Assembly: GCA_965209055.1 (NCBI GenBank)
Contig: OZ242374.1
Location: 1,696,001-1,760,000 of the forward strand
Direction: 5' to 3'
DNA: 64,000 bases
Source of the DNA: Acidobacteriota bacterium
GTDB taxonomy: Bacteria > Acidobacteriota > UBA6911 > RPQK01 > JAJDTT01
This document shows positions 6,679 to 27,724 of this stretch, in pieces. How positions within the stretch are numbered: position 1 is the stretch's first letter; each line of letters opens with the position of its first letter. The notes beneath the pieces were generated by a model that was given only the letters and a program-made list of their open reading frames with translations, was not told where the DNA came from and searched no databases. The position numbers were made by a program, and so were the translations under genes.

Positions 6679-7086
6679 CTACGCGCTTCGCGGTGTCACC
6701 AGTTTCACTGCAGGGAAGTAGGTCTGGTATCGCCTTGTGTCTCTGGTGAGAAGTGTCAGTCCTTGTGTCTCGGCGTGCGCGCCGATGTAGAAATCCGGCA
6801 GCGGCGATGCCCGCACACCTCCGGCTCGGCGATACTGGATAAAGGCTCTCGCCGCGAGGAATCCAGCTTCGTACGGTAGCTGAAAACGCACCAGCATAAG
6901 GGAGTTCAGGTAATGATCCAATTCTCTGGGATCGGTGAAAGAGACGGATGTCTCGGCGTAGATGATCGGGTTGATTCCAACGACTCCGGAGACCAGAGAA
7001 TCACGTATTGCGTGCTCCGACCAGGGACGCCAGACCGGGTCGTCCGAGAGGATGTCGAGCAATACGTTGGTGTCGACCAGAAACAC
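6679..7086 (-). CDS. vapC: PIN-domain toxin (VapC family)
   Basis: MFLVDTNVLLD...PDFYIGAHA...LLTRD. Confidence 0.85.
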   Translation of the reverse strand: MFLVDTNVLLDILSDDPVWRPWSEHAIRDSLVSGVVGINPIIYAETSVSFTDPRELDHYLNSLMLVRFQLPYEAGFLAARAFIQYRRAGGVRASPLPDFYIGAHAETQGLTLLTRDTRRYQTYFPAVKLVTPRSA

Positions 7087-7317
7087 TCAGTCGTCCCCGC
7101 GCGTGAGCCGCATCACATCATCGGTACTGAGTCCTCTGTCCGCGACGCCGCGTGCGTCACGGAGGCGCTGCTCGATGAGAGCTCGTTTGCTCAACACGGG
7201 ACGAATCAACACTCCACCGTCGGACTCTTCGAAGGCCGCCTCCGTATTGGGGAGCAGTCCGAACTTCAGCCTGAATCGCTGGGGGATCGTCACCTGACCC
7301 TTGGATGTAATTTTCAT
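7087..7317 (-). CDS. AbrB/MazE-family antitoxin
   Basis: MKITSKGQVTIPQRFR; directly upstream of the PIN toxin. Confidence 0.85.
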   Translation of the reverse strand: MKITSKGQVTIPQRFRLKFGLLPNTEAAFEESDGGVLIRPVLSKRALIEQRLRDARGVADRGLSTDDVMRLTRGDD

Positions 7318-7455
7318 TGTAAGAGTATTACCAGCTATAGTCTTACAATCAAGTCCCATCGAGTGATGGTGTATGCGGATCGGTGATGTCAGCATGCCTT
7401 TAGCGAATTTCGGATTATCGGATCGTGTGAAGGCAGAAAAAACCGCAATCCGCCG

Positions 7456-8499
7456 TCAGCCTTGAATCCCGTAAATCTCCATGGCGGTCCCGCCGCGAAT
7501 CTGGGCGATGTCGCTTTCGCTCATGTACGGGCACCGCTCCTTGATGTAATCGAACTGGTGCAGGTACTGCTCGACGGTGGGAAGGTCCACGTGGGTGTAC
7601 TCGGAGCCCCACATGAGCTTGGACGGGCCGAAGGTGTCGTAATACGCCTTGAGGACCGCATCTCCGGGGCCGTACATGTCGGACCGGTGCTGGAGTCCGG
7701 GGAGGATCTCCATGACCACGTTGTAATTCTTGACCAACTCGACGACCGCGTCAGGAATTCGGACGGAGCCGTCGTCCTGCACGCAGCTTGGCGGCCAGTA
7801 ACCATGAATGATGACCACCTTGAGATCCGGAAACTTCTTGAGCACGTTCAAGAGGCCTGGCCCCAGGGTCTTGAAGTTGTACGAATAGGAAGTGACGCAG
7901 GCGGGAACACCCAGTGACTGGACCAGTTCCCATTGAGGGTCGTAACGGGAGTGGTCGAAGTGGTGGAAGGGGTCGGGAGTGCCCCACTCCTTGGGGTCCA
8001 TCCCCATTTCCACCCTCTGCTCCGGCGGCCAGCAGTCGTAGTACCACCCCTTGAACCCCCATTCCTCGATGTGTTTCTGGATCAGCTTCAGCCCGCGGTC
8101 ACCGGGCAGCAACCGTTCGTCGATCTTGCTGATGGCGACGAACCGGCCCGGATGCTCCTTCATCATCCGGCGGTGGTACCGGTGCAGGTAGAAGGCGCAC
8201 TGGAGCACCTGCATGTCGATGCCGACGGAATCCATCAGGTAGAGGTTGTCCCGGGCGCCCATCCCGTACTTCCAGTTCTTCCTGTACTCGCCCTCCAGGT
8301 CCTGAATCTCAACCTGGCTGATGTGGCCATGCGCATCGATCTTCATGGGTGTGTCGTCTTTCCTGGTGTGACTTGAGATACCGGCGCTTCTCGCCTCGGC
8401 TCCGGCGAGGTGGGCCGCGGCGGCGGTCCCCAGGGCCTGGGCGGATCGGTGAAGGAAACCGCGGCGCGTCTGGCCGCCGTCAACTCGAGAACTGGACAC
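7456..8499 (-). CDS. Amidohydrolase-family protein with Tat signal
   Basis: TRRGFL, IDAHGH, FGPSKLMWGSEY. Confidence 0.75.
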   Translation of the reverse strand: MSSSRVDGGQTRRGFLHRSAQALGTAAAAHLAGAEARSAGISSHTRKDDTPMKIDAHGHISQVEIQDLEGEYRKNWKYGMGARDNLYLMDSVGIDMQVLQCAFYLHRYHRRMMKEHPGRFVAISKIDERLLPGDRGLKLIQKHIEEWGFKGWYYDCWPPEQRVEMGMDPKEWGTPDPFHHFDHSRYDPQWELVQSLGVPACVTSYSYNFKTLGPGLLNVLKKFPDLKVVIIHGYWPPSCVQDDGSVRIPDAVVELVKNYNVVMEILPGLQHRSDMYGPGDAVLKAYYDTFGPSKLMWGSEYTHVDLPTVEQYLHQFDYIKERCPYMSESDIAQIRGGTAMEIYGIQG

Positions 8500-8571
8500 G
8501 GGTCACCTCCTGGAATACGGAACGTCACTGGTCTGAATCGGAATGGAAGATACGGAATACGACGCTTCGCA

Positions 8572-10287
8572 TCAATATTCCGGGCGGAGTTCGCGGCGGG
8601 AGTCCGATTGTCCGCCTCTCTGACCGGCGGTCCTGACCCATCCCTGCGGCCGGAGCACGACGTCCAGGAAACTGGTCCGATCATTCTGAATCATGACCAA
8701 TTTCGGTCGAAACGTCACCAGTTCCGTCTGGGTCATCTCGGGGCGCGAATAAAAGCTCAAGGAGTAGAGGCCCGTTGGGATTCCTTCAAGGATGAATCGG
8801 CCCTCCTGGGAAAAGCTCCGGAAGATCCCCAGATCGAAACCATCCTTCCTCAATACGATGGTGAAATCCCGCACGGGGTTGCCATCCGTGTCGGCGACAT
8901 TGCCCTCGATCCGTCCTCCGCCCTTGACCCGAAGATCGATGTTGGACTGATAGGCGCGGATCACCTTGGCCTCGGTGATACCGAGTCCCACATGAAGGGC
9001 CGTGGCGTAGATGCGAAAGGGATATTCGCTGGCCTGGTAGGTCTGTGTCGGCTCAGATCTGTCGATCTTCCGGGTGACCGGGGAGACGACGCCCTTGCCG
9101 CTCTCCAGGGCGGTCCCGATCACGAAGGGATTCGCCACGGATTGTCCCTTGCTGTCATAGACGCGCACCGTGAAGCGCCGATACTTCTTGAATTCCTCCA
9201 GGACGGGAAAGATCTCGGTGTCCTGAGTCACCTCGTGGGTCTGCCAGTAGGTCTTGTGTCCCTTGATCTTGACCTCCAGTGTGACGTCGCCTGGAGGCAA
9301 AATGAATTCGAAAAAGCCGCCGCCGCCAGTTGTGGAGTCGGCAAATCCCATTCGTCCGGAATTGGCCTTGACTGCCAGGTCAACGGTTGCGCCGGAGAGA
9401 GAATGTCCATCCCCGTCCGAAACCCGGCCCGAAAGCCGGACCAGCTCGTCCAATTCCGTCACGACGATTTCGAGAGGCGACGAAGTGGGAACCTGCACGT
9501 CGTCCTCAAACGGCTCGTGGGAAATCGAGTGAACGGAGAGTCGATAGGTGCCCTCCGGTATCTCCAGAGAGAAGGAGCCGGCCTGATCGGTCTCGGAATA
9601 GCCCGGTATCCCCATTCTTCTCAGGTAGCGGTTCCGGATCTGGACCGGCGCAGTTGGGGATTCTGTCGGGTCCGAGGAACGGACATTGCGCCTCCCGCGT
9701 GGAATGTCCAAAGAAACTTGAGCCCCCGGAACGCCGTGGCCTGCACTGTCACGGACCGATCCGGTCACGAGTAACCCCGGCGGATTCCTGGGGGTCAGGA
9801 GAACGGTGCACCGTGACTCCGATCCTTCGGCGGCGAAGCCGACATGGTCGGGAACGTACGCGGGGTGGTTGGCCCAAACCCAGTACTGGCCGCGGTCCAG
9901 CTCGAAATAGGCCCTTCCATCGGATCCGGTCTGTTCCGACAATTTCTTGGATCGCGACCACACTTGTGCGACCTGAACCGAGGCTTCCGGCAAGGGAGAC
10001 TGCGTTTCTTCGTCGACGACCAATACCTCGAGGCGGGTGGGTGCATCGGTCCATTCGCCCGATCTCTTCGAGGTCCGGATTGGCGGAACCCCGCGGGCCC
10101 TGCCGATTCCGCTGCCGTCTGGCAGTCGCGGAGGCTGTACGCGTCCATCTTGTGAAATCCGGGCTTGGCCGCCGGAGTGAGAAGCCGATTTCGGCGCGGA
10201 GTCCCGATTCTGATGGTCGATTCGGAAGAGCAGAAAAACCAGAATGACTGCCGCTGCAAGCAGGAGGAGCCAGCGGGCTGGACCCAT
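8572..10287 (-). CDS. Membrane-anchored carboxypeptidase regulatory-like domain protein
   Basis: N-terminal TM helix; repeated GxVxDxxGxPxxGAxV motifs. Confidence 0.65.
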   Translation of the reverse strand: MGPARWLLLLAAAVILVFLLFRIDHQNRDSAPKSASHSGGQARISQDGRVQPPRLPDGSGIGRARGVPPIRTSKRSGEWTDAPTRLEVLVVDEETQSPLPEASVQVAQVWSRSKKLSEQTGSDGRAYFELDRGQYWVWANHPAYVPDHVGFAAEGSESRCTVLLTPRNPPGLLVTGSVRDSAGHGVPGAQVSLDIPRGRRNVRSSDPTESPTAPVQIRNRYLRRMGIPGYSETDQAGSFSLEIPEGTYRLSVHSISHEPFEDDVQVPTSSPLEIVVTELDELVRLSGRVSDGDGHSLSGATVDLAVKANSGRMGFADSTTGGGGFFEFILPPGDVTLEVKIKGHKTYWQTHEVTQDTEIFPVLEEFKKYRRFTVRVYDSKGQSVANPFVIGTALESGKGVVSPVTRKIDRSEPTQTYQASEYPFRIYATALHVGLGITEAKVIRAYQSNIDLRVKGGGRIEGNVADTDGNPVRDFTIVLRKDGFDLGIFRSFSQEGRFILEGIPTGLYSLSFYSRPEMTQTELVTFRPKLVMIQNDRTSFLDVVLRPQGWVRTAGQRGGQSDSRRELRPEY

Positions 10288-10318
10288 TTTTCGCCTCCGG
10301 ACGGTTCTTCAAAGGAGT

Positions 10319-10394
10319 TGGAGGCGGCGACCGGATTCGAACCGGTGAATGGAGGTTTTGCAGACCTCTCCCTTAGCCACTTGGGTACGCCGCC
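10319..10394 (-). tRNA. tRNA-Cys(GCA)
   Basis: Canonical cloverleaf GGCGGCG...CT GCA AA...GGTTCGAATCC...CGCCGCC T CCA; TATAAT upstream. Confidence 0.95.
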
Positions 10395-10521
10395 ACCGTT
10401 TCCGTCCATTATAGGAAACGCCGGAATCGGAACTCAAATGGTGCGAATTCCGTGTCCCGGCGGAATTCTTGACCGGTTGCGGCATTTCCAATAGCTTGCA
10501 GCTCATGCTGGCGGGGACTCC

Positions 10522-11673
10522 GTGAGAACTCTCGTTCGGGAATTGGGGAATCGTCTTGAGCGGGTCCACTCGTCCGGGCTCTACCGGTCCCTCGAGGACG
10601 CGTCCCCCGAGGCCGTGGATTTCTGTTCCAACGACTACCTGGACCTGTCCCGCGATCCGCGGCTGAGGACGTTCCTGATCGAGCGTTTGCAAGACGAGCC
10701 CGAGTCTCGTCCCGTCTCGGCACCCTCCTCCCGGCTGCTGCGGGGAAACACGCCGCACCACCGGCTGCTGGAAGAGAAGCTGGCCCGGTTCAAGGGGACC
10801 GAAGCCGCCCTGGTGTTCCCCAGCGGCTACCAGGCCAACATGGGTCTCCTTTCCGCCCTCATGGGCCCCCGGGACCGGGTGGTGTCGGACCGTCTCAACC
10901 ACGCCAGCATCATCGACGGAATTCGTTTGAGCGGGGCGCGGAAGGTCATCCATCCCCACCGGGATCTGGAGGCGGTGCGAGCCGCTCTCGCGACTCCCCA
11001 TCCCCGCGGCCGAACCTTCCTGGTCACCGAGTCCCTCTTCAGCATGGACGGGGACATCGCGCCCTTGGACCAATATGCGGACCTGGCGGAGGAGTGGGGA
11101 GCGGACCTGATCGTGGATGACTCCCATGCCACCGGGCTCTTCGGCGCCGGTCGAGGGTCGGGCCTGACGGAGCATTTCGGGATCGAGAAGCGCGCCGCCT
11201 CCATCGTTTCGGGGTGCGGCAAGGGCCTTGGAGTGGCCGGCGCGTTCGTGGCCGGCCCCCGAACGGTGATCGAGTACCTGGTCAACGCCTGCCGCAGCTT
11301 CATCTTCACCACCTCCACGCCGCCCCTTCTCCTCTACGCGTTGGAGGCGGCGTTGGAGATCGCCGGGAGCGACCCGGGACGGCGGGAACGGGTACTGAAG
11401 CTCTCTCGCCTCCTGCGGCGCCGGTTGAGATCTCTGGACCTGGATACGTTGGACAGCGCCGGTCCCATCGTTCCGGTCATCCTGGGAGACAATCGCCGCG
11501 CCCTTGCCGTCGCCCAACGGCTTCGGGAGCAGGGGCTGGACGTGAGGGCGCTCCGTCCCCCCACGGTGCCGGCCGGCACCGCTCGGCTCCGGATCTCGGT
11601 TCACGCCAACCATTCTGTCGAGCAGTTGGAACGGCTTTGCCAGGCTCTTGCCGAGGCGCTGGAGACCGTGTGA
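10522..11673 (+). CDS. bioF: 8-amino-7-oxononanoate synthase
   Basis: DFCSNDYL, SGYQAN, NHASIIDG, ESLFSMDGD, RPPTVP; clustered with bioD and bioA. Confidence 0.9.
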   Translation: MRTLVRELGNRLERVHSSGLYRSLEDASPEAVDFCSNDYLDLSRDPRLRTFLIERLQDEPESRPVSAPSSRLLRGNTPHHRLLEEKLARFKGTEAALVFPSGYQANMGLLSALMGPRDRVVSDRLNHASIIDGIRLSGARKVIHPHRDLEAVRAALATPHPRGRTFLVTESLFSMDGDIAPLDQYADLAEEWGADLIVDDSHATGLFGAGRGSGLTEHFGIEKRAASIVSGCGKGLGVAGAFVAGPRTVIEYLVNACRSFIFTTSTPPLLLYALEAALEIAGSDPGRRERVLKLSRLLRRRLRSLDLDTLDSAGPIVPVILGDNRRALAVAQRLREQGLDVRALRPPTVPAGTARLRISVHANHSVEQLERLCQALAEALETV

Positions 11674-12365
11674 TGCAGGTCTTGGTCACTGGAACGGGGA
11701 CCGAAATCGGCAAGACGGTCGTCTCCGCCGTTCTCCTGGCCCACTGGGCGGGACGGACGCACGTGACCTACTGGAAACCGGTCGCCACGGGAGCGGAGGA
11801 GGGAAGCGACAGCCAGGAGGTGGCTTCCCTGGCGGGTCCGGAGGTGCGGATTCTGAAGGAGTGCTACCGTTTTGGTCCGCCCCTTTCTCCTCACCTGGCG
11901 GCCCGCCTGGCGGGAGTCGAGATCGAGCCGGAACGCATCCTCTCCGCCTACCGGCGTTATCGGGAGTCCGTGGACGACGGTCTTTTGGTCGTGGAGGGGA
12001 TCGGAGGCCTCCTGGTGCCCCTGACCGATCGCGGATATCTCCTGGCCGATATTCTGAAGGGGCTGGATATGCCCTGCCTCGTGGTCGCGTCCAGTCAACT
12101 CGGGACCATCAACCACACTCTGCTGACCCTCGAAGCGCTCCGTTCCAGGGACCTGAGCCTGGCGGGAGTGGTCCTGAACGGGCCCGCCAACCTGGAGAAT
12201 CGGCGGGCCATCGAGCGGTTCGGCCGGACCCGTGTCGTGGCGGAGTTGCAACCCCTCGATCCCCTCTCCCGCGAGACCGTCGCGCGAGCGGCCTCCGAAT
12301 TCGATCGGGACAGGATGCTGGAGCGCTGTCTCCTGGGGTCCCGGCCGGGCGCCGGAACGCAGTAG
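11673..12365 (+). CDS. bioD: Dethiobiotin synthase
   Basis: VTGTGTEIGKT, KPVATG, VEGIGG, LGTINHTLL; ATG overlaps the bioF stop. Confidence 0.92.
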   Translation: MQVLVTGTGTEIGKTVVSAVLLAHWAGRTHVTYWKPVATGAEEGSDSQEVASLAGPEVRILKECYRFGPPLSPHLAARLAGVEIEPERILSAYRRYRESVDDGLLVVEGIGGLLVPLTDRGYLLADILKGLDMPCLVVASSQLGTINHTLLTLEALRSRDLSLAGVVLNGPANLENRRAIERFGRTRVVAELQPLDPLSRETVARAASEFDRDRMLERCLLGSRPGAGTQ

Positions 12366-12381
12366 GTTAGAGTATTCGGCG

Positions 12382-13710
12382 ATGGGAGATTTCGGCGGCT
12401 GGGTGTCCCAGGATCGGAAATACGTCTGGCATCCGTTCACCCAGATGCAGACGGCGCCTCCTCCCATCCCCGTCGAGCGCGCCGAAGGGATCTACCTCCA
12501 TACCCAGGACGGCCGCCGGTTGCTGGACGGCATCTCCTCCTGGTGGGTCAACATCCACGGACACAACCATCCTCGTCTCAACCGCGCGTTGGAGGAACAG
12601 GCTTCGCGGCTGGGGCACGTGCTGTTCGCCGGATGCACCCACGAACCGGCGGCACGGTTGGCTTCCGAGCTGGTCCGCCGGGCGCCGGCGGGGTTGTCAC
12701 GCGTCTTCTTCTCGGACAACGGATCCACCTCGGTGGAGGTGGCTCTGAAGATGTCCTACCAGTATTGGAAGAACCGCGGCGAGACCCGCGATCTCTTCAT
12801 CTCTCTGAAACATGCCTACCATGGCGACACCCTGGGTGCCATGGGGGTGGGGGGAGTGGACGCTTTCCACGCCCAGTTCGCGGACCTCCTGGTGAAGCAG
12901 CTCCAGACGCACTCTCCCACCTGCCGGACCTGTCCGGTTGGACGGACCCGCGCCACGTGTCACATCGAGTGCACCGGCCGGCTTGAGGACCTCCTGCGGG
13001 AGACGGGTCACCGGGTGTCGGCGGTGATCGTGGAGCCCATGGTTCAGGGCGCCGGGGGAATGATCATCTGGCCGGTGGAGTTCCTGAACCTGGTCCGGGA
13101 GCTGACCCGCCGTCACGGAATTCTGCTCATCGCCGACGAGGTCTTCACCGGCTTCGGGCGGACCGGAAAGATGTTCGCCTGCGAGCATGGACCGGTGACG
13201 CCCGACCTCATGTGCCTCTCCAAGGCCCTCACCGGAGGGTATCTCCCCCTGGCCGCCACCCTGGTGACCGAGCCCCTGTACCAGGCGTTTCTGAGCGAGG
13301 ACCGGGGGCGGGGGTTTCTGCACGGACATTCCTACACCGCCAATCCCCTGGGATGCGCAGTTGCCCTGGAAAGCCTGGCCCTTTTCGATGAGGAAGAGCG
13401 GCTGGAGCGAGTGGCTCGATTGGCAGAGCTCTTCTCGGAGCGCCTGGCCCGCATGGCGCGGCTGCCTGGAGTGGCGGAGGTTCGCGGGATCGGAGGGCTG
13501 GCGGTGATGGAGCTGGAGGCCGAGGGAGAGGCGGGCTACCTCGACTCTCGAACTCCCCGGTTGATCCAGGCCTTTCAGGAGAAGGGCCTTCTGCTGCGTC
13601 CTCTGGGGAACGTCCTCTATTTCCTGCCCCCTTACGTCATCGAGGATCGGGAAGCGCACCGCGCCTTCGATGTTATCGAGGAAGTCCTGGTCTCTATCGC
13701 TCAACATTGA
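12382..13710 (+). CDS. bioA: Adenosylmethionine-8-amino-7-oxononanoate transaminase
   Basis: WHPFTQM, SSWWVNIHGH, YHGDT, SKALTGG. Confidence 0.92.
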   Translation: MGDFGGWVSQDRKYVWHPFTQMQTAPPPIPVERAEGIYLHTQDGRRLLDGISSWWVNIHGHNHPRLNRALEEQASRLGHVLFAGCTHEPAARLASELVRRAPAGLSRVFFSDNGSTSVEVALKMSYQYWKNRGETRDLFISLKHAYHGDTLGAMGVGGVDAFHAQFADLLVKQLQTHSPTCRTCPVGRTRATCHIECTGRLEDLLRETGHRVSAVIVEPMVQGAGGMIIWPVEFLNLVRELTRRHGILLIADEVFTGFGRTGKMFACEHGPVTPDLMCLSKALTGGYLPLAATLVTEPLYQAFLSEDRGRGFLHGHSYTANPLGCAVALESLALFDEEERLERVARLAELFSERLARMARLPGVAEVRGIGGLAVMELEAEGEAGYLDSRTPRLIQAFQEKGLLLRPLGNVLYFLPPYVIEDREAHRAFDVIEEVLVSIAQH

Positions 13711-13839
13711 GGTTTCATTCTTCATCCTGTCCCGCCGGCAATCTCGCCTTGGGGCGGTTTGCTTTCCGATTTGCGGCTGTGCTAGCCTCCATTCCTGGTT
13801 GCGTTGTCGCAACCGGTGTCCGCCGACCATTGGAGGGAG

Positions 13840-14139
13840 ATGGCTAGACTTCGACCGAGACCTTTTCGTCGTAGACCGCGTAAGCGCAAGAGACCACAGA
13901 AGAGACGGGACGAGCCGAAGGAAAAGAAGTCCGACGCCATCGAGGTCACCGGAACCGTAACGGAACCGCTTCCCAACGCCATGTTTCGCGTCGAGTTGGA
14001 GAACGGACACGTGGTTCTGGCCCACGTTTCCGGAAAGATGCGCCGTCATTTCATCCGGATCCTCCGCGGCGACCGCGTCATGGTCGAACTTTCACCCTAC
14101 GACCTCACCCGGGGCCGTCTCACCTACCGGTACAAATAA
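13840..14139 (+). CDS. infA: Translation initiation factor IF-1 with basic N-terminal extension
   Basis: [24 protein letters not shown]...SGKMR...SPYDLTRGR; RBS GGAGG before ATG 13840. Confidence 0.9.
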
Positions 14140-14147
14140 GCTCCCCG

Positions 14148-15623
14148 ATGACCGAGGGACGCACCGTGACCTCCCGGATCCTGATCGCCCTCTCCGTACT
14201 GTTGCCTCCGGTGGGCCTGGTACTGGTGTGGGCGCGGTCCGGCTGGAGGACAAGGAACCGGTTGCTGGCAAGCCTCGCGCTCCTGGCATTGACCTGGGTC
14301 TACGTGTTTCAGGCGGTGGGTCTGAGCATCGAACGGGACGGCACCGGTTGGCGTCCGCTGGTCTCCATTTCGCCGGTCTGGTCCCGGTACGCAACGGCCG
14401 AGGGAGCATCCGCTTCAGGCGGGGCTCACGCTGCTCCTGCATCGGATGTCCGGAGCTGGACCGGGTTTCGGGGGTCGGACCGGGACAGCCGCTACCTGGA
14501 GGGAGAGATCCGGACCGCTTGGCCCGGTGATGGACTCCCGCTGCTCTGGAGGCGGCCGGTGGGAGGCGGATACGCTTCCATCGTCGCCGGTTCGGGGCTT
14601 CTCTTCACCATCGAACAGCGGGGCCCCCAGGAGGTCGTGGCTGCCTATGATCCGGACACCGGCGCTGAGGTTTGGACCCATGGCTGGGACGCCGAGTTCC
14701 AGGAGACCATGGGAGGTGACGGGCCCCGGGCGACTCCCCAGTGGCACGACGGTCGACTTTACGTCCTGGGAGCCACCGGCGAGTTCCGTTGCTTCGATGC
14801 CGCCAGCGGGAAAGTTCAATGGGGGTTGAACATCCTCTCGGACAACAGCGCCCGGAATCTGGTTTGGGGCATGTCCGCCTCACCCCTGATTACGGGTGAC
14901 CAGGTCATTCTCCTCCCCGGCGGGGCGTCGGACCGATCCGTCGTCTCCTATCATCGGCTCACCGGCAAGTTCCTCTGGGGAGCGCTCAGCGACAAACAGG
15001 CGTATGCCGCGCCGATCGTAGCCGACCTGGCCGGGCGGGAGCAGTTGCTGGTGGTAACGGCCGAGCGAGTCGTGGGACTCGACCCGACGGGTGGCGAGCT
15101 GCTCTGGGAGTATCCCTGGGTCACCTCCTACGACGTCAATTCCGTGGAACCTCTGTTGCTGGGAAACGACCGGTTCTTCATCTCCTCCGGTTACGGCCAC
15201 GGGGCGGCGGTGCTGGAGATCGGACGGGGCGAGGACGGCTACGCCGTGAAGACCGTCTGGAAAAACAAGCGAATGAAGAACAAGTTCAACGGCTCGGTCC
15301 TCCATGAGGGTCATGTCTACGGTCTGGATGAGGCCATCCTGGCTTGCGTGGACGTAACCACGGGAGAGAGGAAGTGGAAGGGAGGCCGCTATGGTTACGG
15401 CCAGATCCTTCTGGCCTCGGGCCATCTGGTGGTGTTGACGGAGCGGGGCGATCTGGTTCTGGTCGAGGCCAACGCGGAGGAGCACCGCGAGCTGGCGCGA
15501 TTTTCGGCGCTGACCGGAAAGACCTGGAACTATCCCGTCATCGTCGCGGGCCGTCTCCTGGTGAGGAACCAGACCCAGATGGCCTGCTACGACGTGAGCC
15601 CGAGTCCGAAAGACCCCTCATAG
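14148..15623 (+). CDS. PQQ-binding-like beta-propeller protein
   Basis: WTGFRGSDRD, GPRATP and repeated ...TGxxxW motifs. Confidence 0.75.
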   Translation: MTEGRTVTSRILIALSVLLPPVGLVLVWARSGWRTRNRLLASLALLALTWVYVFQAVGLSIERDGTGWRPLVSISPVWSRYATAEGASASGGAHAAPASDVRSWTGFRGSDRDSRYLEGEIRTAWPGDGLPLLWRRPVGGGYASIVAGSGLLFTIEQRGPQEVVAAYDPDTGAEVWTHGWDAEFQETMGGDGPRATPQWHDGRLYVLGATGEFRCFDAASGKVQWGLNILSDNSARNLVWGMSASPLITGDQVILLPGGASDRSVVSYHRLTGKFLWGALSDKQAYAAPIVADLAGREQLLVVTAERVVGLDPTGGELLWEYPWVTSYDVNSVEPLLLGNDRFFISSGYGHGAAVLEIGRGEDGYAVKTVWKNKRMKNKFNGSVLHEGHVYGLDEAILACVDVTTGERKWKGGRYGYGQILLASGHLVVLTERGDLVLVEANAEEHRELARFSALTGKTWNYPVIVAGRLLVRNQTQMACYDVSPSPKDPS

Positions 15624-19968: not shown

Positions 19969-20559
19969 TCATCGGAGAACTGGAACCACGGGCAAGGTCG
20001 TGAAGATACGGTTGTCGGCGTCCATCTCCAGGGCCAACCCCGTGAACCTCCCGATGTCTGGCACGGTGCAGCGCACGGACCCCTCGAAGTCCGAAGTGAT
20101 GGTCTTGGCGAACAGCTCGTGGATGAACTGCGCCGTCTGTCCGTTGCCGGCTATTGAAATTTCCTGCTCTTCCAATGCCCTGCCGGCGCGCATCAGTTGG
20201 CATGTGACCTTGATCGCATTCTTCGTCAGGTTGCGGATGGCCATCCCTGTGCGAATTCCTCTGATTTGGTGTCGAGCCGGGAAGATTGCATCCTGGACGG
20301 CCTCACTGGCGCCGACTCCTGCGACGCCAATCTCTGGGTGGTCGAACCGCAGGAACCCACCGATTGGACCGTCTGCGACAACCTTCACCGAGCCAGTTGT
20401 CAGATCCCCCCGGCCGTGGGTGGAGATCGTGAGTTCCCCTAGTGGGACCAATGGCGTCTCCACGGTCAAGGCTCCATCGCTCTGGATCTTAAGGCCGATT
20501 ACCAGGTCCAACATCGCCTCAGGAGGAATGAGGGCTCCTTCACCGTCGTAGAATTGAAT
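19969..20559 (-). pseudogene. 3' fragment of the IS-interrupted LRR gene
   Basis: IQFYDGEG... continues in frame from ...GPIHPVIQ at 25361; second copy of the C-terminal domain of the LRR protein. Confidence 0.85.
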
Positions 20560-20598
20560 GGGGATTATACAGTTGACTAGGCACTCCTGCATTCCTGG

Positions 20599-20898
20599 TC
20601 ACTTGGGGTGAGCAATCTCGAAGCTCACGATCAAAGAAGCCTCGTGACTTTCCCCATCGCCCATCCTTTTGGCTTCTCGCAAAGCTCGGAACGCTCTTTC
20701 CATAACCGTGAGGTCCGCCCTCTCAAGTCTACGATTGTTGCAGATAGGACAACAATCGATGCTTTTTGCTCTGAAGGAAGGGCCAGGCCCTTTCAGTGAG
20801 AAGACCGTTTCGCCCTTACACTTTTCATCAGGGCAGATGACCCGCATCTTAAGAATGTCTTGAGCTCCGAAAACAATCCTTTTTTCCTTCACTATCAT
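20599..20898 (-). CDS. Small Cys-rich (possible Zn-ribbon) hypothetical cargo protein
   Basis: CPDEKC...CPIC; TATAAT and GGAGGT immediately upstream. Confidence 0.6.
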   Translation of the reverse strand: MIVKEKRIVFGAQDILKMRVICPDEKCKGETVFSLKGPGPSFRAKSIDCCPICNNRRLERADLTVMERAFRALREAKRMGDGESHEASLIVSFEIAHPK

Positions 20899-20926
20899 AC
20901 CTCCATTATACTAGTATTTTATACAG

Positions 20927-22543
20927 TTATTCGGAAGAATCAGGACACCCTTGTGGAGGATCAGATGCTGAAACGTTTACTGGATCAGTGTCTTTCCAAT
21001 ACGTCACCTTTGCTTCATAGAACTCAGAATAGTTCGGATGTTCAGGCAATTGGAGTTTGTAACCTCTAGGGTGTTTCCAAATGTCATCAGATGGCACCCG
21101 AATAGACTTCTTGTACCAAATAGGTGATCCAGCCCAAGGTCGTTGATAAGTCACTTCCACTGGATCTGCTTCTTCCATTCGTCGGTGATATGCACTGAGA
21201 TTTGGGTTGTCACTACTTGTTGAGCCGGAGAAGGAGCCCGAACCTCCTATCCTTTCGTGCAGGTGTAATTTGGCAGCGGCAAGGCATTGGCTTTCACCGT
21301 ATTCGGTAATCCAAAATATCTGAGCACCGGTTACATAATCGATTATTGGAGCATACCGAGAATTTTGGTGCGCTCGTCTTTTTCCCTCGTACGGAGGGGT
21401 AGGATAAATCTCAATCCTCTGCACGGCGGGTAGTTCTCCTGTTCTGTCTCTTCTAAAAGCTCCGACGTGGAGGGCTTCATCCCCGGAGACGTTATCAGGA
21501 GCATGAGTAGGGCCTACTCCACCATTTTGAGACAGGACATCCCACCAACCGCCTGGAGAACAATCATCTGGAGAAACGGGAGACGGCCCATCCCAAAAAC
21601 GACGCCAACGCAAAGCGTGCCAATCAGCGTTTCCTTGTTCTCGAGGAAACAACTCCAAAACCATTAAGGTTCGAGGCAGGTAGTCTAAATCGTTGTCTAC
21701 TTCAAGCAGATAGTTGGTGAACCTACCAACCACACGACGATTGACTCGATAGAATTCGGAACCCACATTGATCCCAAACTCATAGACTGGTATTACGATT
21801 TCATCAGTCAGGGTACGGACACACTCATGGGTCTCCAAAACTTTGGGATTTAGATGGTCGTATTCTTTAACGGGAGCCAAAGATGCTTCTACACGACTGC
21901 CACGACTGCATTGAGTCTCATCTAGGATAAAACGGTGTATGGAAGATGCTCCTGGACTCAATCCATAATCTCGTATTGGAAGGACGGTTTTGTCTCCGAC
22001 AGGAATGAAAGGCGTCGCAAAGTAACTGCCTGGGTTCTCAATTGGATCGTACTCGGTGATCCTCCATTGTTGGACGCCTTGACAGTCGTTTCCTTTGGTA
22101 TTCGCTTGGAGGTAAGAAAGATGGATAATCTGGCCGTCATGATGATCTTGGTCAAGATCAACACTTAAGTTACATTGCTCATGTATCATATGAGGGATGT
22201 CTCCGTAAGGAGTTGAGAAGACCCCTCCCTTCGCCCCTGTAAGAAACGCAAACGCAATCAAGACCCTCACAACCTTTTTCGATGTGGAGTTCTTTGATTC
22301 GTTCCGGTCCTTAATCCACAAGATAATAGCAATGAGCAAGGCAAAGGGCAGAGCAGTAAATACGAGTGTTGCTAAGATTGCAGCAATACCTAATCCGCTC
22401 AGTGTCAACCCGAGCAGGATAGATCCTAACGATCCGCTGGCGGCAAGTATGACACCACCTGCGATTATAAGAACTGCAACTAACCCGTGTATACCTTCCT
22501 TATTGTTGAGTATCCCTTCGCACATCTCCCGGAAATCTCGCAT
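20927..22543 (-). CDS. Hypothetical membrane-anchored cargo protein, 538 aa
   Basis: Long ORF in lower-GC DNA, RBS GAGGAGG, N-terminal hydrophobic helices; no family recognised. Confidence 0.65.
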   Translation of the reverse strand: MRDFREMCEGILNNKEGIHGLVAVLIIAGGVILAASGSLGSILLGLTLSGLGIAAILATLVFTALPFALLIAIILWIKDRNESKNSTSKKVVRVLIAFAFLTGAKGGVFSTPYGDIPHMIHEQCNLSVDLDQDHHDGQIIHLSYLQANTKGNDCQGVQQWRITEYDPIENPGSYFATPFIPVGDKTVLPIRDYGLSPGASSIHRFILDETQCSRGSRVEASLAPVKEYDHLNPKVLETHECVRTLTDEIVIPVYEFGINVGSEFYRVNRRVVGRFTNYLLEVDNDLDYLPRTLMVLELFPREQGNADWHALRWRRFWDGPSPVSPDDCSPGGWWDVLSQNGGVGPTHAPDNVSGDEALHVGAFRRDRTGELPAVQRIEIYPTPPYEGKRRAHQNSRYAPIIDYVTGAQIFWITEYGESQCLAAAKLHLHERIGGSGSFSGSTSSDNPNLSAYHRRMEEADPVEVTYQRPWAGSPIWYKKSIRVPSDDIWKHPRGYKLQLPEHPNYSEFYEAKVTYWKDTDPVNVSASDPPQGCPDSSE

Positions 22544-22581
22544 GACCCCTCCTCTCGACTTGGGTAGAATGGTGGGATGGA

Positions 22582-22674
22582 GGCAGGGTGGACGAAGATT
22601 GGATTAAGTCGCCCGACTGAAAATCGGGTAGGGTTGAAAGGCCCTCGCGGGTTCAACACCCGTCCCTGCCACCA
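22582..22674 (+). tRNA. Atypical long-variable-arm tRNA with GAA (Phe) anticodon
   Basis: GGCAGGG/CCCTGCC acceptor, GAC/GTC D-stem, CCCGA-CT GAA AA-TCGGG, V-arm AGGGTT-GAAA-GGCCCT, GCGGG-TTCAACA-CCCGT, A73, encoded CCA. Confidence 0.8.
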
Positions 22675-22704
22675 TCAAGCATCAATATATGATACTTCCC
22701 ATAT

Positions 22705-22968
22705 TCACAGGGGCCAGGTTGGGAACGGTGGAGGAGTCAGCCAGACACACTCATCATTGAAGATTCTCAATGTCCAGCCGTTTTCCTTCTCGCGGAACTT
22801 GGCATGAGCTCTCAACGCTCCTCGGTTGAGGGATTTCACTTTCCATAGCACCGCAGTCTCTTTCGAGAGTCTGGCCAGGTCGGCCCAGGTGATTGGGCCG
22901 TGGACTGACATGAGGTGATCGAGGAATCGAACGTGGTGTTTGAATTCGTGGGGTGCTTTGTGGGACAT
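22705..22968 (-). CDS. Small hypothetical cargo protein, 87 aa
   Basis: AGGAGA RBS before ATG 22968 (MSHKAPHEF...). Confidence 0.45.
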   Translation of the reverse strand: MSHKAPHEFKHHVRFLDHLMSVHGPITWADLARLSKETAVLWKVKSLNRGALRAHAKFREKENGWTLRIFNDECVWLTPPPFPTWPL

Positions 22969-23010
22969 CGACGGGTCTCCTACGCTGTCCAGGTGGAATC
23001 CACCGTGGAC

Positions 23011-23209
23011 TGTTGTCTGCAATCAGCACCCCAGTGCAGATAGGGAGCCGGGTCATCGCAGACAACGCATAGGAAGTCGGAAGTGCTCTTCCAGTCCCTG
23101 CCTATTCGCCCCGTCCGATTCATGACGTCGCACGGTTTATAATGCCTTTTGTATTTGGCAGGTGACCCGGCACAGGATGCGCCACGGGAAACCTACGGCT
23201 GTCTGCAAT
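23011..23209 (-). ncRNA. Predicted structured RNA unit, copy A
   Basis: Interleaved pairings GCAGACAGCCGTAGG/CCTATGCGTTGTCTGC and GCCGGGTCA/TGACCCGGC; conserved in copy B. Confidence 0.55.
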
Positions 23210-23373
23210 GCCGATCATAACAGACAGGACTGGAACGCTCAACTGCCGCTACTCTCGGGAACGGCTCCTCCCTACGCGGGGCAGAGCCCGCCATGATCGT
23301 GAGTCCAACAACCACCTCCTACGTTGCCCGAAAAATTAGCAATCAAAACCAAAATGGCGATGCCTCCGAGCGG

Positions 23374-23555
23374 GTTGTCTACGCCGACGATCCCACGTCT
23401 GCACATTGTGGGAGCCGGGTCATTGCAGACAACACGTAGGAAGTGAAGTTGCTACTTATTTACTCAGCAAGGTCATGACTCCTTGCGATTACGAGCTATT
23501 GCATTCAGTAGCTGACCCGGCACACTTGCGGGAGAACCCTTAGCGTTGTCTACGG
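23374..23555 (-). ncRNA. Predicted structured RNA unit, copy B
   Basis: 23410-23444 matches 23043-23077 at 32/35; same pairings with G-U variants. Confidence 0.55.
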
Positions 23556-23666
23556 GTGGATCTTACTGGAAGGAGGGCTGGATTGCAAACCCGCCCCACC
23601 CACAAAATTTTTCGAGCACTCGAAATACTTCTGAGGTTTGCAGTACAATACAGGTTACAACGAAGA

Positions 23667-23747
23667 TGGCAGGCGCCCCAGGCAGGATTCGAACCTGCAA
23701 CCTTCGGCTGCGATACCGTTGCTCATCCATCTGAGCTTCTGGGGCGC
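23667..23747 (-). ncRNA. tRNA-like RNA (Arg-like body, 6-nt anticodon loop containing TCG)
   Basis: GCTC-AGATGGAT-GAGC D-arm, GCAGG-TTCGAAT-CCTGC T-arm, 9 bp GCGCCCCAG/CTGGGGCGC stem; TATAAT at 23754-23759. Confidence 0.65.
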
Positions 23748-23864
23748 TTCGCCATTATAACCTACTCGGAGGGCAGAAAATGCGTCGTGGGAAGAACCGC
23801 AAGCCAGTTGACATTTTAGCCTTGGCAATGCAGAAAGCGCATCAGCAGGTCAGAGACGGGGACC

Positions 23865-24836
23865 TCAATTCTGAGACTCGTCCGACTCATCATCAGCAGT
23901 CAGATCAAGATACATCAGACGACGGCCGACCAGTCCCGCCACGATGTGCTTCATCTGATCAATAGTATCCAGCTCTCGGATATTGTGACGCTTGGCGAAC
24001 TCACTGACGTATCGGTGTAGGTGCTTTTCACTCATCTTGTGGAAAGTGCCCGTGTAGCCGCGTTTTAACATCGACCAAAAGGACTCCATGCCATTCGTGT
24101 GTGCCATGCCTCTGACATACTCGCCTACTGTGTGCTTGACAGATTCCCGTCTATGGCCCATCCAATCGTAGGCTGGATTCTCGTCTGTGTATGATCTCAC
24201 CCACAAGACAGAGTTTTCCAGGATGAACGTGGAAAGTGTTGCCTTGGTTGTATCGGGAACAACCCTAGCCCTGATCTGATTGGTCGGACGATCTTTCATT
24301 CCCACAACTGCGACTTTGCCAACAGACCCTCGACCAGAGAATTGAGCCCGGCGCTTGGCACTCATATTCCGCCTCTTGCCTCCAATGTAAGTCTCGTCAA
24401 TCTCCACCGGCCCGGACAGAGTCTCTGAGTCGTCCTCGGTCCAGGATTGCCGAAGTCGATGAAGCATGAACCACGCTGTGGCTTGTGTCACATCGATGTC
24501 TCGGTGGAGTTTCATTGAGGAGACTCCCTTGAGGTTCGTAATGTAGATGAAGATCGCCAAGGCCCATTTCTGTAACGGGACGTGGGATCTGGCCAAGGTC
24601 GTGCCAGTGCGGACTGAAAAGTAGCGCCGACAGTCAGAACACCAGTAAGGTTGAGGCCGTCGTTTCGGAGTCTCGTTCGTCTTGACGCTGCCGCAATGCC
24701 CACAGCATCGCTCATCGGGCCAGAGTACGGACTCGAACCATTTTTCCGCGGATTCCTCATCCGGGAACATCTTGAAAAGTTGGATCAGTGAGATTCCTTG
24801 TCGGTAAAACTTGCCTGGAGCTTTTGCTTTCTTCAT
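23865..24836 (-). CDS. IS1595-family transposase
   Basis: Zn finger CGHC...CSDC, VEIDETYIGG, YTDE, HTNGMESFWSMLKR. Confidence 0.95.
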   Translation of the reverse strand: MKKAKAPGKFYRQGISLIQLFKMFPDEESAEKWFESVLWPDERCCGHCGSVKTNETPKRRPQPYWCSDCRRYFSVRTGTTLARSHVPLQKWALAIFIYITNLKGVSSMKLHRDIDVTQATAWFMLHRLRQSWTEDDSETLSGPVEIDETYIGGKRRNMSAKRRAQFSGRGSVGKVAVVGMKDRPTNQIRARVVPDTTKATLSTFILENSVLWVRSYTDENPAYDWMGHRRESVKHTVGEYVRGMAHTNGMESFWSMLKRGYTGTFHKMSEKHLHRYVSEFAKRHNIRELDTIDQMKHIVAGLVGRRLMYLDLTADDESDESQN

Positions 24837-24966
24837 TGTCTCCCTCTCAATTTCCTGAACATTTTATCACAGGACCCTGACATTTTTCTGTAGTAAGTCC
24901 TTTGTTATGTTTAGTTTACACAGATTGTCGTGAGGGCAGTACAATAAAACATGATGGCGGAGGGAT

Positions 24967-25075
24967 GGACACAGCGGGGTACGATCCCGCGACCTCCCAG
25001 TTCTAAGTGCCCGTGGTAGGAAAAATTTTGGGCACCAGAGCCGGGTGTTCTGCCAGCATAAAGAACTATGCGGCC
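24967..25075 (-). ncRNA. tRNA-like RNA with 33-nt insertion in the anticodon loop
   Basis: GGCCGCA/TGTGTCC, GTTC/GAAC D-stem, CCCGG/CTGGG, AGGTC V-loop, GCGGG-ATCGTAC-CCCGC; TAGAAT at 25091-25096. Confidence 0.6.
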
Positions 25076-25127
25076 TTCGTCTCCGCCATCATTCTACCAG
25101 ATTTCCAAGGGGAAGGGAAGATGGTGA

Positions 25128-25292
25128 GGCGCAAAGATTCCTGGCTTTCGGCTCTCCCAAGTGGCTTTCTTGTGGCAAGGGCCTGGGCTGGGGTTACATG
25201 CCCTGGAAGATCGCATCAAACTGGGCGCAAAGATTCCTGGCCCGGGCCTGGGGGAACCTGAAGCTGGGCCTAGGCTGGGGTTACGCGCCCTG
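25128..25292 (+). repeat. Two tandem hairpin units with conserved arms and variable cores
   Basis: GGCGCAAAGATTCCTGGC at 25128 and 25224; GGGCCTRGGCTGGGGTTACRYGCCCTG at 25179 and 25266. Confidence 0.75.
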
Positions 25293-25358
25293 TTGACCAT
25301 CGTAGCGGGTTCGATGTCTTTGGTCAATCAGGGGTACCTAGTCAACTGTATAATCCCC

Positions 25359-27526
25359 AATTGAATGACTGGGTGAATCGGGCCCGATGCTACATTCACG
25401 AGCACCAAGTCGGAAGTGATGGAGGAACCGTTGGCGAAATGGGGGAAATGCAAATGCATGTTGTCCTGCGTGCGCATCGGTGGAACCGGAACCACGGGCA
25501 AGGTCGTGAAGATCCGGTTCTGGAAATCCATCTCCAAAGCCACACCGGTGAACAGAGAATCCTCGGGAGCCATGCACCGAACCGATCCCACGAAGTTCCC
25601 CGTATAGGTCTCGGGGAATAATTCATCAATGAACTGGGCCGTCTGGCCGTGTCCAGCCAGCGGGATATCCACGTCGCCACGCAAGTTGTTCCTTTGCGTC
25701 AGTTGGCAACTCACGGTGATCGGATCCTCTCCCCGGTTACGAATCGCCACTCCAGTATTGATTCCTGATTCTTGGCGCCGCACAGGGAAAATCGCGTCCT
25801 GTACGGCTATTCCCGTACCCACCCCGGCGACTCCCATGTCCGAGCTGTCAAAGCGCAGAACTCCCCCGATGGGACCGTCCGCCACAGCCCTTGCCGATCC
25901 CGTGACCAAATCCCCTCGGCCATGGGTCGAGATCGTGAGTTGTCCCAGGGGTTCTATTTCCTTCCGTACGGTCAGGGACCCGTCGGCCCGGATCAAACGA
26001 TCCTCTCCGACATCCACTATGGATGCCGGGTCTATGAGGTTTCCCTCGGCGTCGAAAAAGTAGAGGGCCGGCTGGATGGGAGTGGCTCCAACATTCACGA
26101 ACACCAACTCGGAGCGAATGGACGCCCCGTTGGCAAATTGGGAGAATTCCAAGGAAAGTCCTGCCAGTACAGTCAGCGGCTCGGCAGATCTGATAAACGT
26201 GTAACCAAGACTGCCCCCAAGCTGGAGCGGGAGCTGTGCGATCTCGACGGTGACCGGAGAAGTCGTTCCAGACTGTCGAGCCACCGAATAAACGTCGCTT
26301 GTCTCTCGCCCTGCGGGAATCGTGACGTGGGATGAATCCCCGCGAAGCATGCCGTTGGTTACAATGATCCGCAGACGGATCTCAAAGGGTGCGCCAGTAG
26401 GCACTCTAAGCTGGAATCGGCCTGGAGCCACCCATTCCATAAAAACGTTGATGAGTAGACGATGCGCCGGATTGTTTCTCATCGTGAAAATTTGCATGGA
26501 AGAGAGACCGAAGAAGATGCCATCTGGCAGGCTGGTCAGCCTATTGTTGTCCAGATAGAGAGTTCGTAGTGAGGAAAGACCGGAGAACGCTCCCGCCGGC
26601 AAACTAACCAGTTTATTCCCACTCAGTACAAGCAGTTGCAGTGTAGAAAGTTCAGCGAAGGCTCCTACCGGAAGGGTAGTCAGCGCACTGTCATTCAGGA
26701 GGAGAGTTCGTATTGAGGTGAGGCCGGAGAACGCTCCCGCCGGCAAGCTGGTCAATTCATTCCCGCCCAGATGGAGATGTATCAGCGAGGAGAGGCCGGT
26801 GAAGGCCCCCACCGGCAGGGTGGTCAGCGCATTGTGAGACAGGCGGAGAAGCTTTAGCGAGGAGAGGCCGGTGAAGGCCCCAGCTGACAGGTTCATCAGC
26901 CCGGTCAGCGGCGTGTTGGGAAAGGATGAGTTGGAAGCACTAGCCAGGTTGAGTTCTTGCAGTGAGGAGAGGCCGGTGAAGGTCCCCGCCATCAGCCCGG
27001 TTAGCTTAGTAAATGACAGGTTGAGTTCTTGCAACGAGGGGAGGCCGGTGAAGGCCCCAGCCGGCAGACTGGTCAACTTTGTACTAGACAGATCGAGAGT
27101 TTCCAGTGAGGAGAGCCCGGTGAACACTCCCGCCGGTAGAGTGGTAAGGGGAGTCAGGTTCAAATAGAGCGTTGTCACCGAAGAAAGTCCCGAGAAATCG
27201 CCGACTCTCAACGCTGTCACTGGTGGCGGCGGCCGTCGTTCGCGGCTGGGGTTGTTCCAATCGGGCGAAGAGTAATACCCGCCGTGAAAAAACTCGCCCT
27301 CAATCGCAGCCAGATGAACCTCGGTCACGTCGGTGCAATCATCTATCCCCGACACCAGACTCACGATCTCGTCGCGCACCTCCGGGGTCCTGTCGCAGAC
27401 GGGGACGATCTGAGCTACGACTGGCTCTGACGCGGCCAGCAGGCCCAAGCTCAAGGTGACGGTTAACAGCGAGCTTCTGGATCGCTGCCGGCAACGATGC
27501 AGAATCTTCGAAAAGTGGACTGACAT
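25359..27526 (-). pseudogene. Secreted leucine-rich-repeat protein, 5' part (interrupted by IS1595 element)
   Basis: RBS GGAGGAG, signal peptide, 24-aa LxxLPxGxFxGLxSLxxLxL repeats; the predicted ORF ends in TIR-derived LGIIQLTRYP. Confidence 0.85.
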
Positions 27527-27724
27527 CTGAATGGCTCCTCCAGGTAGACGGTAGCGGCTCATACTGTATTCAGGGATGCAGAGGGGCTCCTGCTGGCCGA
27601 ATTGTAGTCCGGCCCACCGATCCGGTGGCCCGGGGCCGTACCTCGTTTTTTCCTGATGGGGTCACCGAGTCAGGGGGGTGGCCACGATTTCGGGAGTCCC
27701 AAGTCACACCGAGGGAGATGGACG

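Follow-up and report, generated by a model that had tools for sequence, protein, structure and literature searches.

Arrays of tRNA genes are known on phages, plasmids and integrative elements, where several genes stand together and some of them are odd. In Acidobacteria, irregular tRNAs and allo-tRNAs have been described near transposon and toxin-antitoxin genes, and some of the irregular ones are reported to be charged yet unused in translation (Mukai et al. 2017, PMC5389517). Another RNA associated with mobile elements, in this case integrons, transposons and plasmids of Xanthomonas and Xylella, is sRNA-Xcc1, an expressed RNA of about 88 nucleotides (nt) in Xanthomonas (PMC2996969), which is reported upstream of symE on Xanthomonas integron cassettes (bioRxiv 10.1101/2025.06.18.660453) and as tandem copies about 380 nt apart in a Xylella island (PMC12189769). 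Judged by the text of these reports, the two systems are the nearest precedents for the element analysed here, a 4.8-kb transposon of the IS1595 family that occupies positions 20560-25358 of a 64,000-nt stretch of an Acidobacteriota genome (contig OZ242374.1; hereafter the window). With a probability of roughly one half, we read it as a passenger-carrying IS1595 transposon whose cargo consists of small, separately promoted cassettes, namely irregular tRNAs (W1, W2 and W3) and structured RNA leaders (Unit A). An earlier note, made from the DNA letters alone, held that no comparable cargo had been described; this was too strong, as the irregular tRNAs of Acidobacteria and sRNA-Xcc1 came before, and a search of the literature for a described IS1595 element with tRNA cargo found none. 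Below, G000 denotes the window's own genome (6.08 Mb) and L-numbers denote related loci, of which L022, L024, L072 and L073 lie in G000; the unpublished genome G016 is included in several genome tallies, and none of its matches supports any claim.

Terminal inverted repeats and an 8-bp target-site duplication (TSD) are part of the definition of the IS1595 family. The window element, present once in its genome, starts and ends with an exact 22-nt terminal inverted repeat (20560-20581, plus strand; 25337-25358, minus strand), flanked on both sides by the directly readable TSD AATTGAAT (20552-20559 and 25359-25366). The 22-nt terminal string has these two matches in the window and no other at three or fewer mismatches, and none of 100 shuffles gave two matches. 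Because the flanks are contiguous in a G000 paralogue of the interrupted gene (stretches matching both flanks at 4354684-4355478 and then 4355489-4357017, 10 nt apart), the element sits inside a gene, of which the flanking minus-strand open reading frames (ORFs) at 19969-20592 and 25328-27562 are the two halves. Sponge-metagenome contigs from a second study contain short pieces of the passenger genes p99 and p538 and of positions 23548-23719 with 0-12 differences, so misassembly in a single sample does not account for the element; the contigs of other samples include none that joins across the element, hence no empty site was seen.

The transposase (323 amino acids (aa), 23865-24836, minus strand) is intact and scores 176.9 bits with the NCBIfam model NF033547 (IS1595; cut-off 75) and 122.5 bits with Pfam PF12762 (DDE_Tnp_IS1595; cut-off 27), while a putative N-terminal zinc ribbon scores 23.4 bits with PF12760, below the cut-off of 25.4, and CxxC...CxxC can be read in the translation. 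With this DDE_Tnp_IS1595 transposase, the Cys-rich N-terminus, the 8-bp TSD, passenger genes and ends that start with GGGGATTATA, the element resembles the passenger-carrying, ISNwi1-like group of the family as defined in ISfinder. The exact ends and the intact transposase that the earlier note had proposed are thereby confirmed, and its estimate of about 1.5 kb of non-coding DNA lies close to the roughly 1.6 kb that we measured.

Sister transposons show that the RNA cargo is a shared property of this element. A tblastn search revealed a second pair of transposase and p538 genes in the same genome (L022:1332-8796), within an element that has exact 22-nt ends, the TSD AATCGGAA, a transposase, a p538 homologue at 27% identity and three Rfam tRNAs (55.4, 51.3 and 47.8 bits). 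Within the species collection, the transposase most similar to that of the window (79% identity) is found at L027, in a genome of the same genus, within an element (6759-15389) that has the TSD AATGGATA, homologues of p105 and p538 and eight Rfam tRNAs, compared with three each in the window and L022. The elements, whose transposases are 56-79% identical to one another, have in common the order transposase, tRNA-like gene, p105 (in two of the three) and p538 homologue, and all three have a same-strand tRNA-like gene 110-120 nt beyond the stop codon of the transposase. Since transposons with TSDs of their own carry the same transposase, a p538 homologue and irregular tRNAs, the RNA cargo is not accidental but conserved in a mobile element. 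Compared with the arrays of phages, plasmids and integrative elements, the carrier is here of the insertion-sequence type, and most of its 3-8 tRNA-like genes are non-canonical. Irregular tRNAs of Acidobacteria, unexplained since 2017, are here contained in three delimited, wholly clonable transposons.

The class II tRNA W2 (22582-22674, plus strand) has the anticodon GAA and an encoded CCA and is found by ARAGORN and by the Rfam tRNA model RF00005 (22582-22671, 44 bits; gathering score 29 bits), with a TAGAAT -10-like box at 22565-22570 on the same strand. Its acceptor stem measures 7 bp and its D stem 3 bp, with GG in the D loop; the variable arm is long, the 7-nt anticodon loop is CUGAAAA with U33, the T-loop is the canonical UUCAACA and the discriminator is A. 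Comparison with its counterpart at L027:13081-13169 shows that about a quarter of the positions differ while the CUGAAAA loop is identical, and that six of 25 pairs changed on both sides, one on one side, with none broken. A covariance model built from these two sequences (R1) gives W2 114.5 bits; apart from the pair itself, no sequence in the 76 genomes of the order scores above 100 bits, the next-best matches being housekeeping tRNA-Ser at about 70 bits. From its sequence, W2 thus appears to be a Phe-codon reader with a Ser/Leu-type body that is both under selection and redundant: the compensatory changes with no broken pair speak for selection, and the host genome also encodes a normal tRNA-Phe(GAA). 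Synthetases reported to ignore the anticodon are those for Ser and Ala and, less strictly, for Leu (PMC11415595), which makes mischarging of W2 plausible. The tRNA-ProX/ProRSx mistranslation system (PMC10404621, PMC11415595) likewise has an anticodon that does not fit the body type and is described as coming with a dedicated synthetase, whereas Pfam and NCBIfam scans of the window element contain no synthetase gene. A fold with a Phe anticodon on a Ser/Leu-type body under clear selection makes the ideas of mistranslation, decoy and relic directly testable.

W1 (23674-23745, minus strand; Rfam 48 bits) has an Arg-type body, 74% identical to host tRNA-Arg, with a canonical T-loop, a 5-bp T-stem, a 6-nt anticodon loop and a 7-bp acceptor stem that can be extended to 9 bp. 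W3 (24953-25090, minus strand; Rfam 29.3 bits) consists of a tRNA-like core (24966-25075) inside a 10-bp outer helix and groups with L027:9484-9559 (anticodon GAA) and with G000:1817273-1817345, that is L073:5274-5346 (anticodon GCU); four of the 22 pairs in this group covary. ARAGORN finds only W2 by default and W1 only at the 90% threshold, with a 2-base anticodon; its 105 calls in 64 kb at the 80% threshold were discarded as noise. A DNA search with the non-coding cargo in 61 genomes matched W1 to ordinary tRNA-Arg genes only. None of 16 irregular tRNAs is more than 75% identical to any of the 48 host tRNAs, and none is therefore a recent capture.

Each of W1, W2 and W3 is preceded at 8-15 nt by a TA(T/G)AAT box (W1, TATAAT at 23754-23759, minus strand; W3, TAGAAT at 25091-25096, minus strand), in keeping with the three tRNA-shaped genes with a -10 hexamer apiece that had been noted before. 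Such a box occurs in 66 of 20,000 random 32-mers and upstream of 13 of the 48 housekeeping tRNAs. Across the three elements, ten of the 14 tRNA-likes have a TANAAT box 7-22 nt upstream; a box at 7-8 nt would put the transcription start on the mature 5' end or immediately beside it. Around most tRNA-likes the leader can pair with the trailer and so extend the acceptor helix, by 10 bp in W3 and by 7 bp in the L027 genes A1-A3. We also observed an identical 17-nt anticodon arm (CCCGGCTGAAAACCGGG) on opposite strands of L027 (9514-9530 and 13125-13141), within unrelated tRNA-like scaffolds. Several tRNA-like units are closely followed on their downstream side by a conserved AGTACAAT box that is directed back into them (window 23644-23649 and 24940-24945, plus strand; also L027 6825, 13466 and 14961). 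The box represents either a convergent promoter for antisense transcription or, as ATTGTACT on the sense strand, one part of a conserved signal at the 3' end.

Like the tRNAs of the window, the irregular tRNAs of Acidobacteria (PMC5389517; review PMC7609411) are described as clustered and as having a mismatch between body and anticodon, and they stem from the same phylum; the carrier here is a delimited transposon with a TSD, unlike that of the irregular tRNAs as the text of the report presents it. The tRNA types described there may overlap with W1-W3. W2 departs from the allo-tRNA criterion given there, a 12-bp acceptor branch in the form 8/4 or 9/3, in having the ordinary 7/5 form.

The second component of the cargo, Unit A, is present in two copies on the minus strand (23040-23181 and 23407-23531), 367 nt apart, which share conserved blocks with a mean column identity of 76%. 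Copy 1 lies about 70 nt upstream of the p105 start and downstream of a promoter-like site that matches the consensus (TTGAGC, 17 nt, TATGAT; 23214-23242, minus strand). Searches with nhmmer identified relatives in L027, in L094 and beside the irregular tRNA at G000:1817273. In this five-sequence set, read on the minus strand, the helices P1 (9 bp) and P2 (6 bp) stack on each other, with 98.6% of cells paired and compensatory changes in eight of the 15 pairs, which none of 500 shuffles reached. A covariance model built from this set (R2; 118.6 and 111.5 bits for copies 1 and 2) detected 16 copies in seven of the 76 genomes, all within the taxonomic family of the window. Fifteen distinct rows have 97.7% of 219 cells paired and nine of the 15 pairs covarying, again reached by none of 500 shuffles, while alignments slid out of register gave at most two pairs. 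Since 23 cells are G-U and would be A-C on the other strand, the strand of Unit A is fixed, and by its sequence Unit A behaves as a real structured RNA of the window's minus strand. A separate cluster about 96 kb from the element, beside an IS1-type transposase (L073; G000:1817273-1817754), combines three parts: a class I tRNA of 73 nt, which has the Ser anticodon GCU and an unusual T-loop; a copy of Unit A (L073 5607-5757); and an ORF with a HIRAN domain.

All 16 copies have a TAnnnT-type -10-like box within about 60 nt upstream, several with an additional TTGAC -35 box, and all are followed by an ORF, coding for p105 (two copies), HIRAN (three), zinc-ribbon/TM2 (three), an HNH nuclease (one), a Lar-like protein (one, a weak match) or unknowns. 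An IS1595 transposase lies within 5 kb of ten copies. The direction of Unit A is constant relative to the following ORF and variable relative to the transposase, and Unit A therefore looks like a leader of passenger genes and not like a control of transposition. In about 11 of the 16 copies an alternative pairing partner for the 3' strand of P1 lies 5-12 nt downstream. Strongly covarying and placed close to a promoter, as a leader of variable passenger genes, Unit A would bear the signature of a regulatory RNA. Of what the earlier note had said on these RNAs, the covariation among homologues that it asked for is found in two tRNA-like families and in Unit A, and the recurrence in other copies of the element is found in the sister transposons, which carry irregular tRNAs in the same order. 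Its mobile RNA-based module stands as a mobile element with conserved RNA cargo, while the suggested RNA control of transposition does not, as Unit A faces passenger ORFs. Both of its structured units are indeed duplicated, yet only Unit A is structured and covarying; the other, Unit B (25128-25292), is a direct repeat with a period of about 87-96 nt that has no fold beyond chance (z-scores -0.8 and -1.25) and no nhmmer homologue in the genome or any related locus, and is thus a genuine but merely local repeat.

Unit A resembles sRNA-Xcc1 (Rfam RF02221; gathering score 53 bits, model length 87 nt) in being carried by mobile elements, in occurring in tandem copies and in lying upstream of an ORF, as far as the texts cited above describe that RNA. 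Its shortest copy (L142; 103 bits with R2) aligns to positions 1-87 of RF02221 at 37 bits, below the threshold, in the shared order P1, P2, AAUACAA, P3, GAAUA, P2', P1'. This was the only match among the 16 copies, the window copies giving none at E ≤ 10, and Unit A differs in its length of 106-142 nt as against 87, in being without a U-tail and in its phylum. On the strength of these likenesses, we treat Unit A as working like the sRNA-Xcc1 family and as perhaps a distant relative, not as an established member; it would extend a poorly understood type of mobile-element RNA to another phylum.

From the ends, synteny, RNA folds and covariation we infer how the cargo may be transcribed, charged, decoded and regulated. 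W2 would most likely be transcribed from its own TAGAAT box and processed, and the translation apparatus would then bind it or make use of it. With its class II body, W2 would be a suitable substrate for the seryl- or leucyl-tRNA synthetase (SerRS, LeuRS), which would place Ser or Leu at Phe codons; alternatively, W2 might be charged by the phenylalanyl-tRNA synthetase (PheRS), which a GAA anticodon together with A73 could equally attract. W1 and W3 would be tRNA mimics or decaying copies. Unit A would form an RNA leader of about 130 nt, made from its own minus-strand promoter ahead of p105 and of a 44-aa ORF, and would probably gate passenger expression through the closing helix P1, whose 3' strand has the alternative partner downstream.

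Several observations weigh against the proposal of separately promoted tRNA and leader cassettes. With only three transposons, from two genomes of a single genus, the family is very small, and kinship therefore inflates every count. The discriminator is A in W2 and G in its L027 counterpart, so a fixed amino-acid identity is not conserved. W1 has an A-A mismatch and an anticodon loop that is one base short (6 nt); in W3, an insert of 36 nt interrupts the anticodon loop, the acceptor stem contains a C-U mismatch and the T-loop is the non-canonical AUCGUAC; judged by these sequences, W1 and W3 cannot decode normally, and their defects fit decay as well as mimicry. A promoter scan of the whole region was not above chance (7 sites, 4.1 ± 2.1 expected). 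The 15-row alignment of Unit A was fitted to the model, which favours structure, and in only three of the 16 copies was the alternative hairpin matched in stability by no more than six of 200 shuffles. The passenger proteins, moreover, yield no functional clue.

These points bear differently on the other explanations. In one that we consider unlikely, the tRNA-likes would have no part in decoding but act as decoys or spare substrates when a toxin or defence nuclease attacks host tRNAs, and so shield the host or stabilise the transposon. One 17-nt anticodon arm (CCCGGCUGAAAACCGGG) is the same in two unrelated L027 scaffolds, with its loop also in W2, and the repeated Phe-type arm points to the arm itself as the selected part; W1 and W3 retain a tRNA shape without a usable anticodon loop, and the HNH, HIRAN and Lar-like ORFs that follow relatives of Unit A are a defence-flavoured cargo. 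Phage tRNAs are known to counter anticodon nucleases. In Acidobacteria, the text of Mukai et al. (PMC5389517) places irregular tRNAs near toxin-antitoxin genes and includes charged-but-unused examples. However, nothing in the element was recognised as a nuclease or toxin directed at tRNA or as a defence protein (best PADLOC E-values 0.0087 and 0.034), and W2 carries every feature of a working tRNA, the CCA end included.

It is more doubtful still that the tRNA-likes act in cis, as RNase P/Z cutting sites, stabilisers or insulators between transposase and passenger messages. Such a role would suit the constant same-strand gene behind the transposase stop and the leader/trailer pairing, but W2, like four of the tRNA-likes of L027, is oriented opposite to the transposase, processing needs no conserved anticodon loop, and the -10 boxes that ten of the 14 possess, often 7-8 nt from the 5' end, suggest independent, nearly leaderless transcripts. 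We also give little credence to the view that the tRNA-likes are functionless hitch-hiking or decaying pseudogenes and Unit A a DNA site for recombination or transposase binding. The short loop and mismatch of W1 and the insert and acceptor mismatch of W3 speak for decay, which may be incomplete in a family so small and young; against it stand the six compensatory changes in W2 with no pair broken and an order of parts kept in elements whose transposases share only 56-79% identity. A DNA site is difficult to reconcile with the 23 G-U cells of Unit A, which would be mismatches in the complementary strand or its DNA hairpins, and with a direction that is fixed to the next ORF and variable to the transposase.

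There is a small but real chance that the tRNAs and leaders form a single mobile circuit, in which anticodon-mismatched tRNAs would recode Phe codons and others, poison them, or act as tRNA mimics, and Unit A would be a new leader that senses a ligand or tRNA and switches the passengers on, as a mobile counterpart of a riboswitch or T-box that responds to the state of these tRNAs or of translation. Hints in this direction are the two alternative partners for the 3' strand of P1, the position of Unit A next to irregular tRNAs at three places (four of the 16 copies; window, L027 and G000:1817273) and the 8-mer ACCCGGCU that is common to the anticodon arms of the W3 family and the 3' strand of P1. 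Rfam models of cis-regulatory RNAs (riboswitch, T-box) gave no match at E ≤ 1 in the element or in 13 related loci.

The passenger proteins p99, p538 and p105, noted before as three ORFs of unknown kind, have kept that status, with no family match above cut-off in Pfam, NCBIfam, PADLOC or PHROGs. The orphan p99 (99 aa, 20599-20898, minus strand) has CxxC...CxxC motifs and a single relative, 97% identical, on a foreign contig that also holds relatives of p538 and p105. The 538-aa p538 (20927-22543, minus strand), with homologues in both sister transposons, has an N-terminal membrane segment and seven conserved Cys; it has 14 representatives among 1.84 billion proteins, occurs in two of the 76 genomes of the order and two of 401 sampled from the phylum, and has a relative at 93% identity on that same foreign contig, which is 270 kb long. 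Its AlphaFold model (predicted local distance difference test score (pLDDT) 65.6) has no match in the PDB at E ≤ 0.001, and a run of its alignment over metagenomes gave 202 pattern matches, none of them confirmed. Word-index searches for homologues of the passenger proteins returned only near-identical copies, all on one foreign contig, and a search of the ESM Atlas nothing usable. p105 (22705-22968, minus strand) probably starts at the ATG at 22968, giving 87 aa, the longest ORF reaching 23022, and has homologues at L027 10228-10476 (33% identity) and G000:5262931-5263167. A predicted ORF of 44 aa with a hydrophobic core (23272-23406, minus strand) begins at the first base after Unit A copy 2 and has no Shine-Dalgarno sequence, a layout that by analogy may recall small toxins silenced by 5' structure.

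Among more remote IS1595 relatives, exact inverted ends of at least 22 nt surround the transposase in 13 of 32 related loci, nine of them with spans of 2.1-6.3 kb. Distant passenger-carrying elements differ from the window element in that passengers are frequent and tRNA cargo is not: none of eight that we examined contains a tRNA, ARAGORN calls one within 1.5 kb of the transposase in two of 28 order-level relatives (L097 and L105), and Rfam at the gathering threshold detects one tRNA among 20 order-level loci. This scarcity implies that the RNA cargo is special to a small clade. The tRNA of L105 (2604-2679; genome G008 of the same genus) is irregular and canonical-looking, with anticodon UGG on a body unlike the host-type tRNA-Pro; on one side of it stands an IS1595 transposase (42% identity) and on the other a GGGAATTATA-type end, whose partner was not found. 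In a Dehalococcoidia genome (L040 10064-10303), two ordinary tRNA-Ser genes begin 64 nt beyond the end of an IS1595 relative; this is an insertion beside tRNA genes and not tRNA cargo. Near another IS1595 passenger element, L036 13908-14032 matches a group II intron domain at 42.7 bits. A 1.35-kb stretch of the window's own genome (L024; G000:C1:6066994-6068365) is bounded by inverted copies of GGGGATTATAGACTTGACTACA, has no transposase or Rfam match and may be a non-autonomous IS1595 derivative.

A strong hairpin (TTGACCA...TGGTCAA; 25293-25336) abuts the right terminal repeat. The gene that the element interrupts belongs to a very large paralogous family with leucine-rich repeats and a repeated C-terminal module, with dozens of DNA matches per genome across the genus. 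The seven 88-nt tRNA-Leu(UAA) genes of the genome were set aside as a separate phenomenon, three of them lying in 4-kb repeats with the behaviour of ordinary integrative elements. These repeats (L072; G000:C1:475697-479807, near 1991443 and near 2524782) are 90-93% identical integrative elements located at tRNA-Leu; in each, a tRNA-Leu(UAA) whose gene does not encode the CCA is accompanied by an ArdC-like/zincin protein and by a tyrosine integrase that has an Arm-binding domain.

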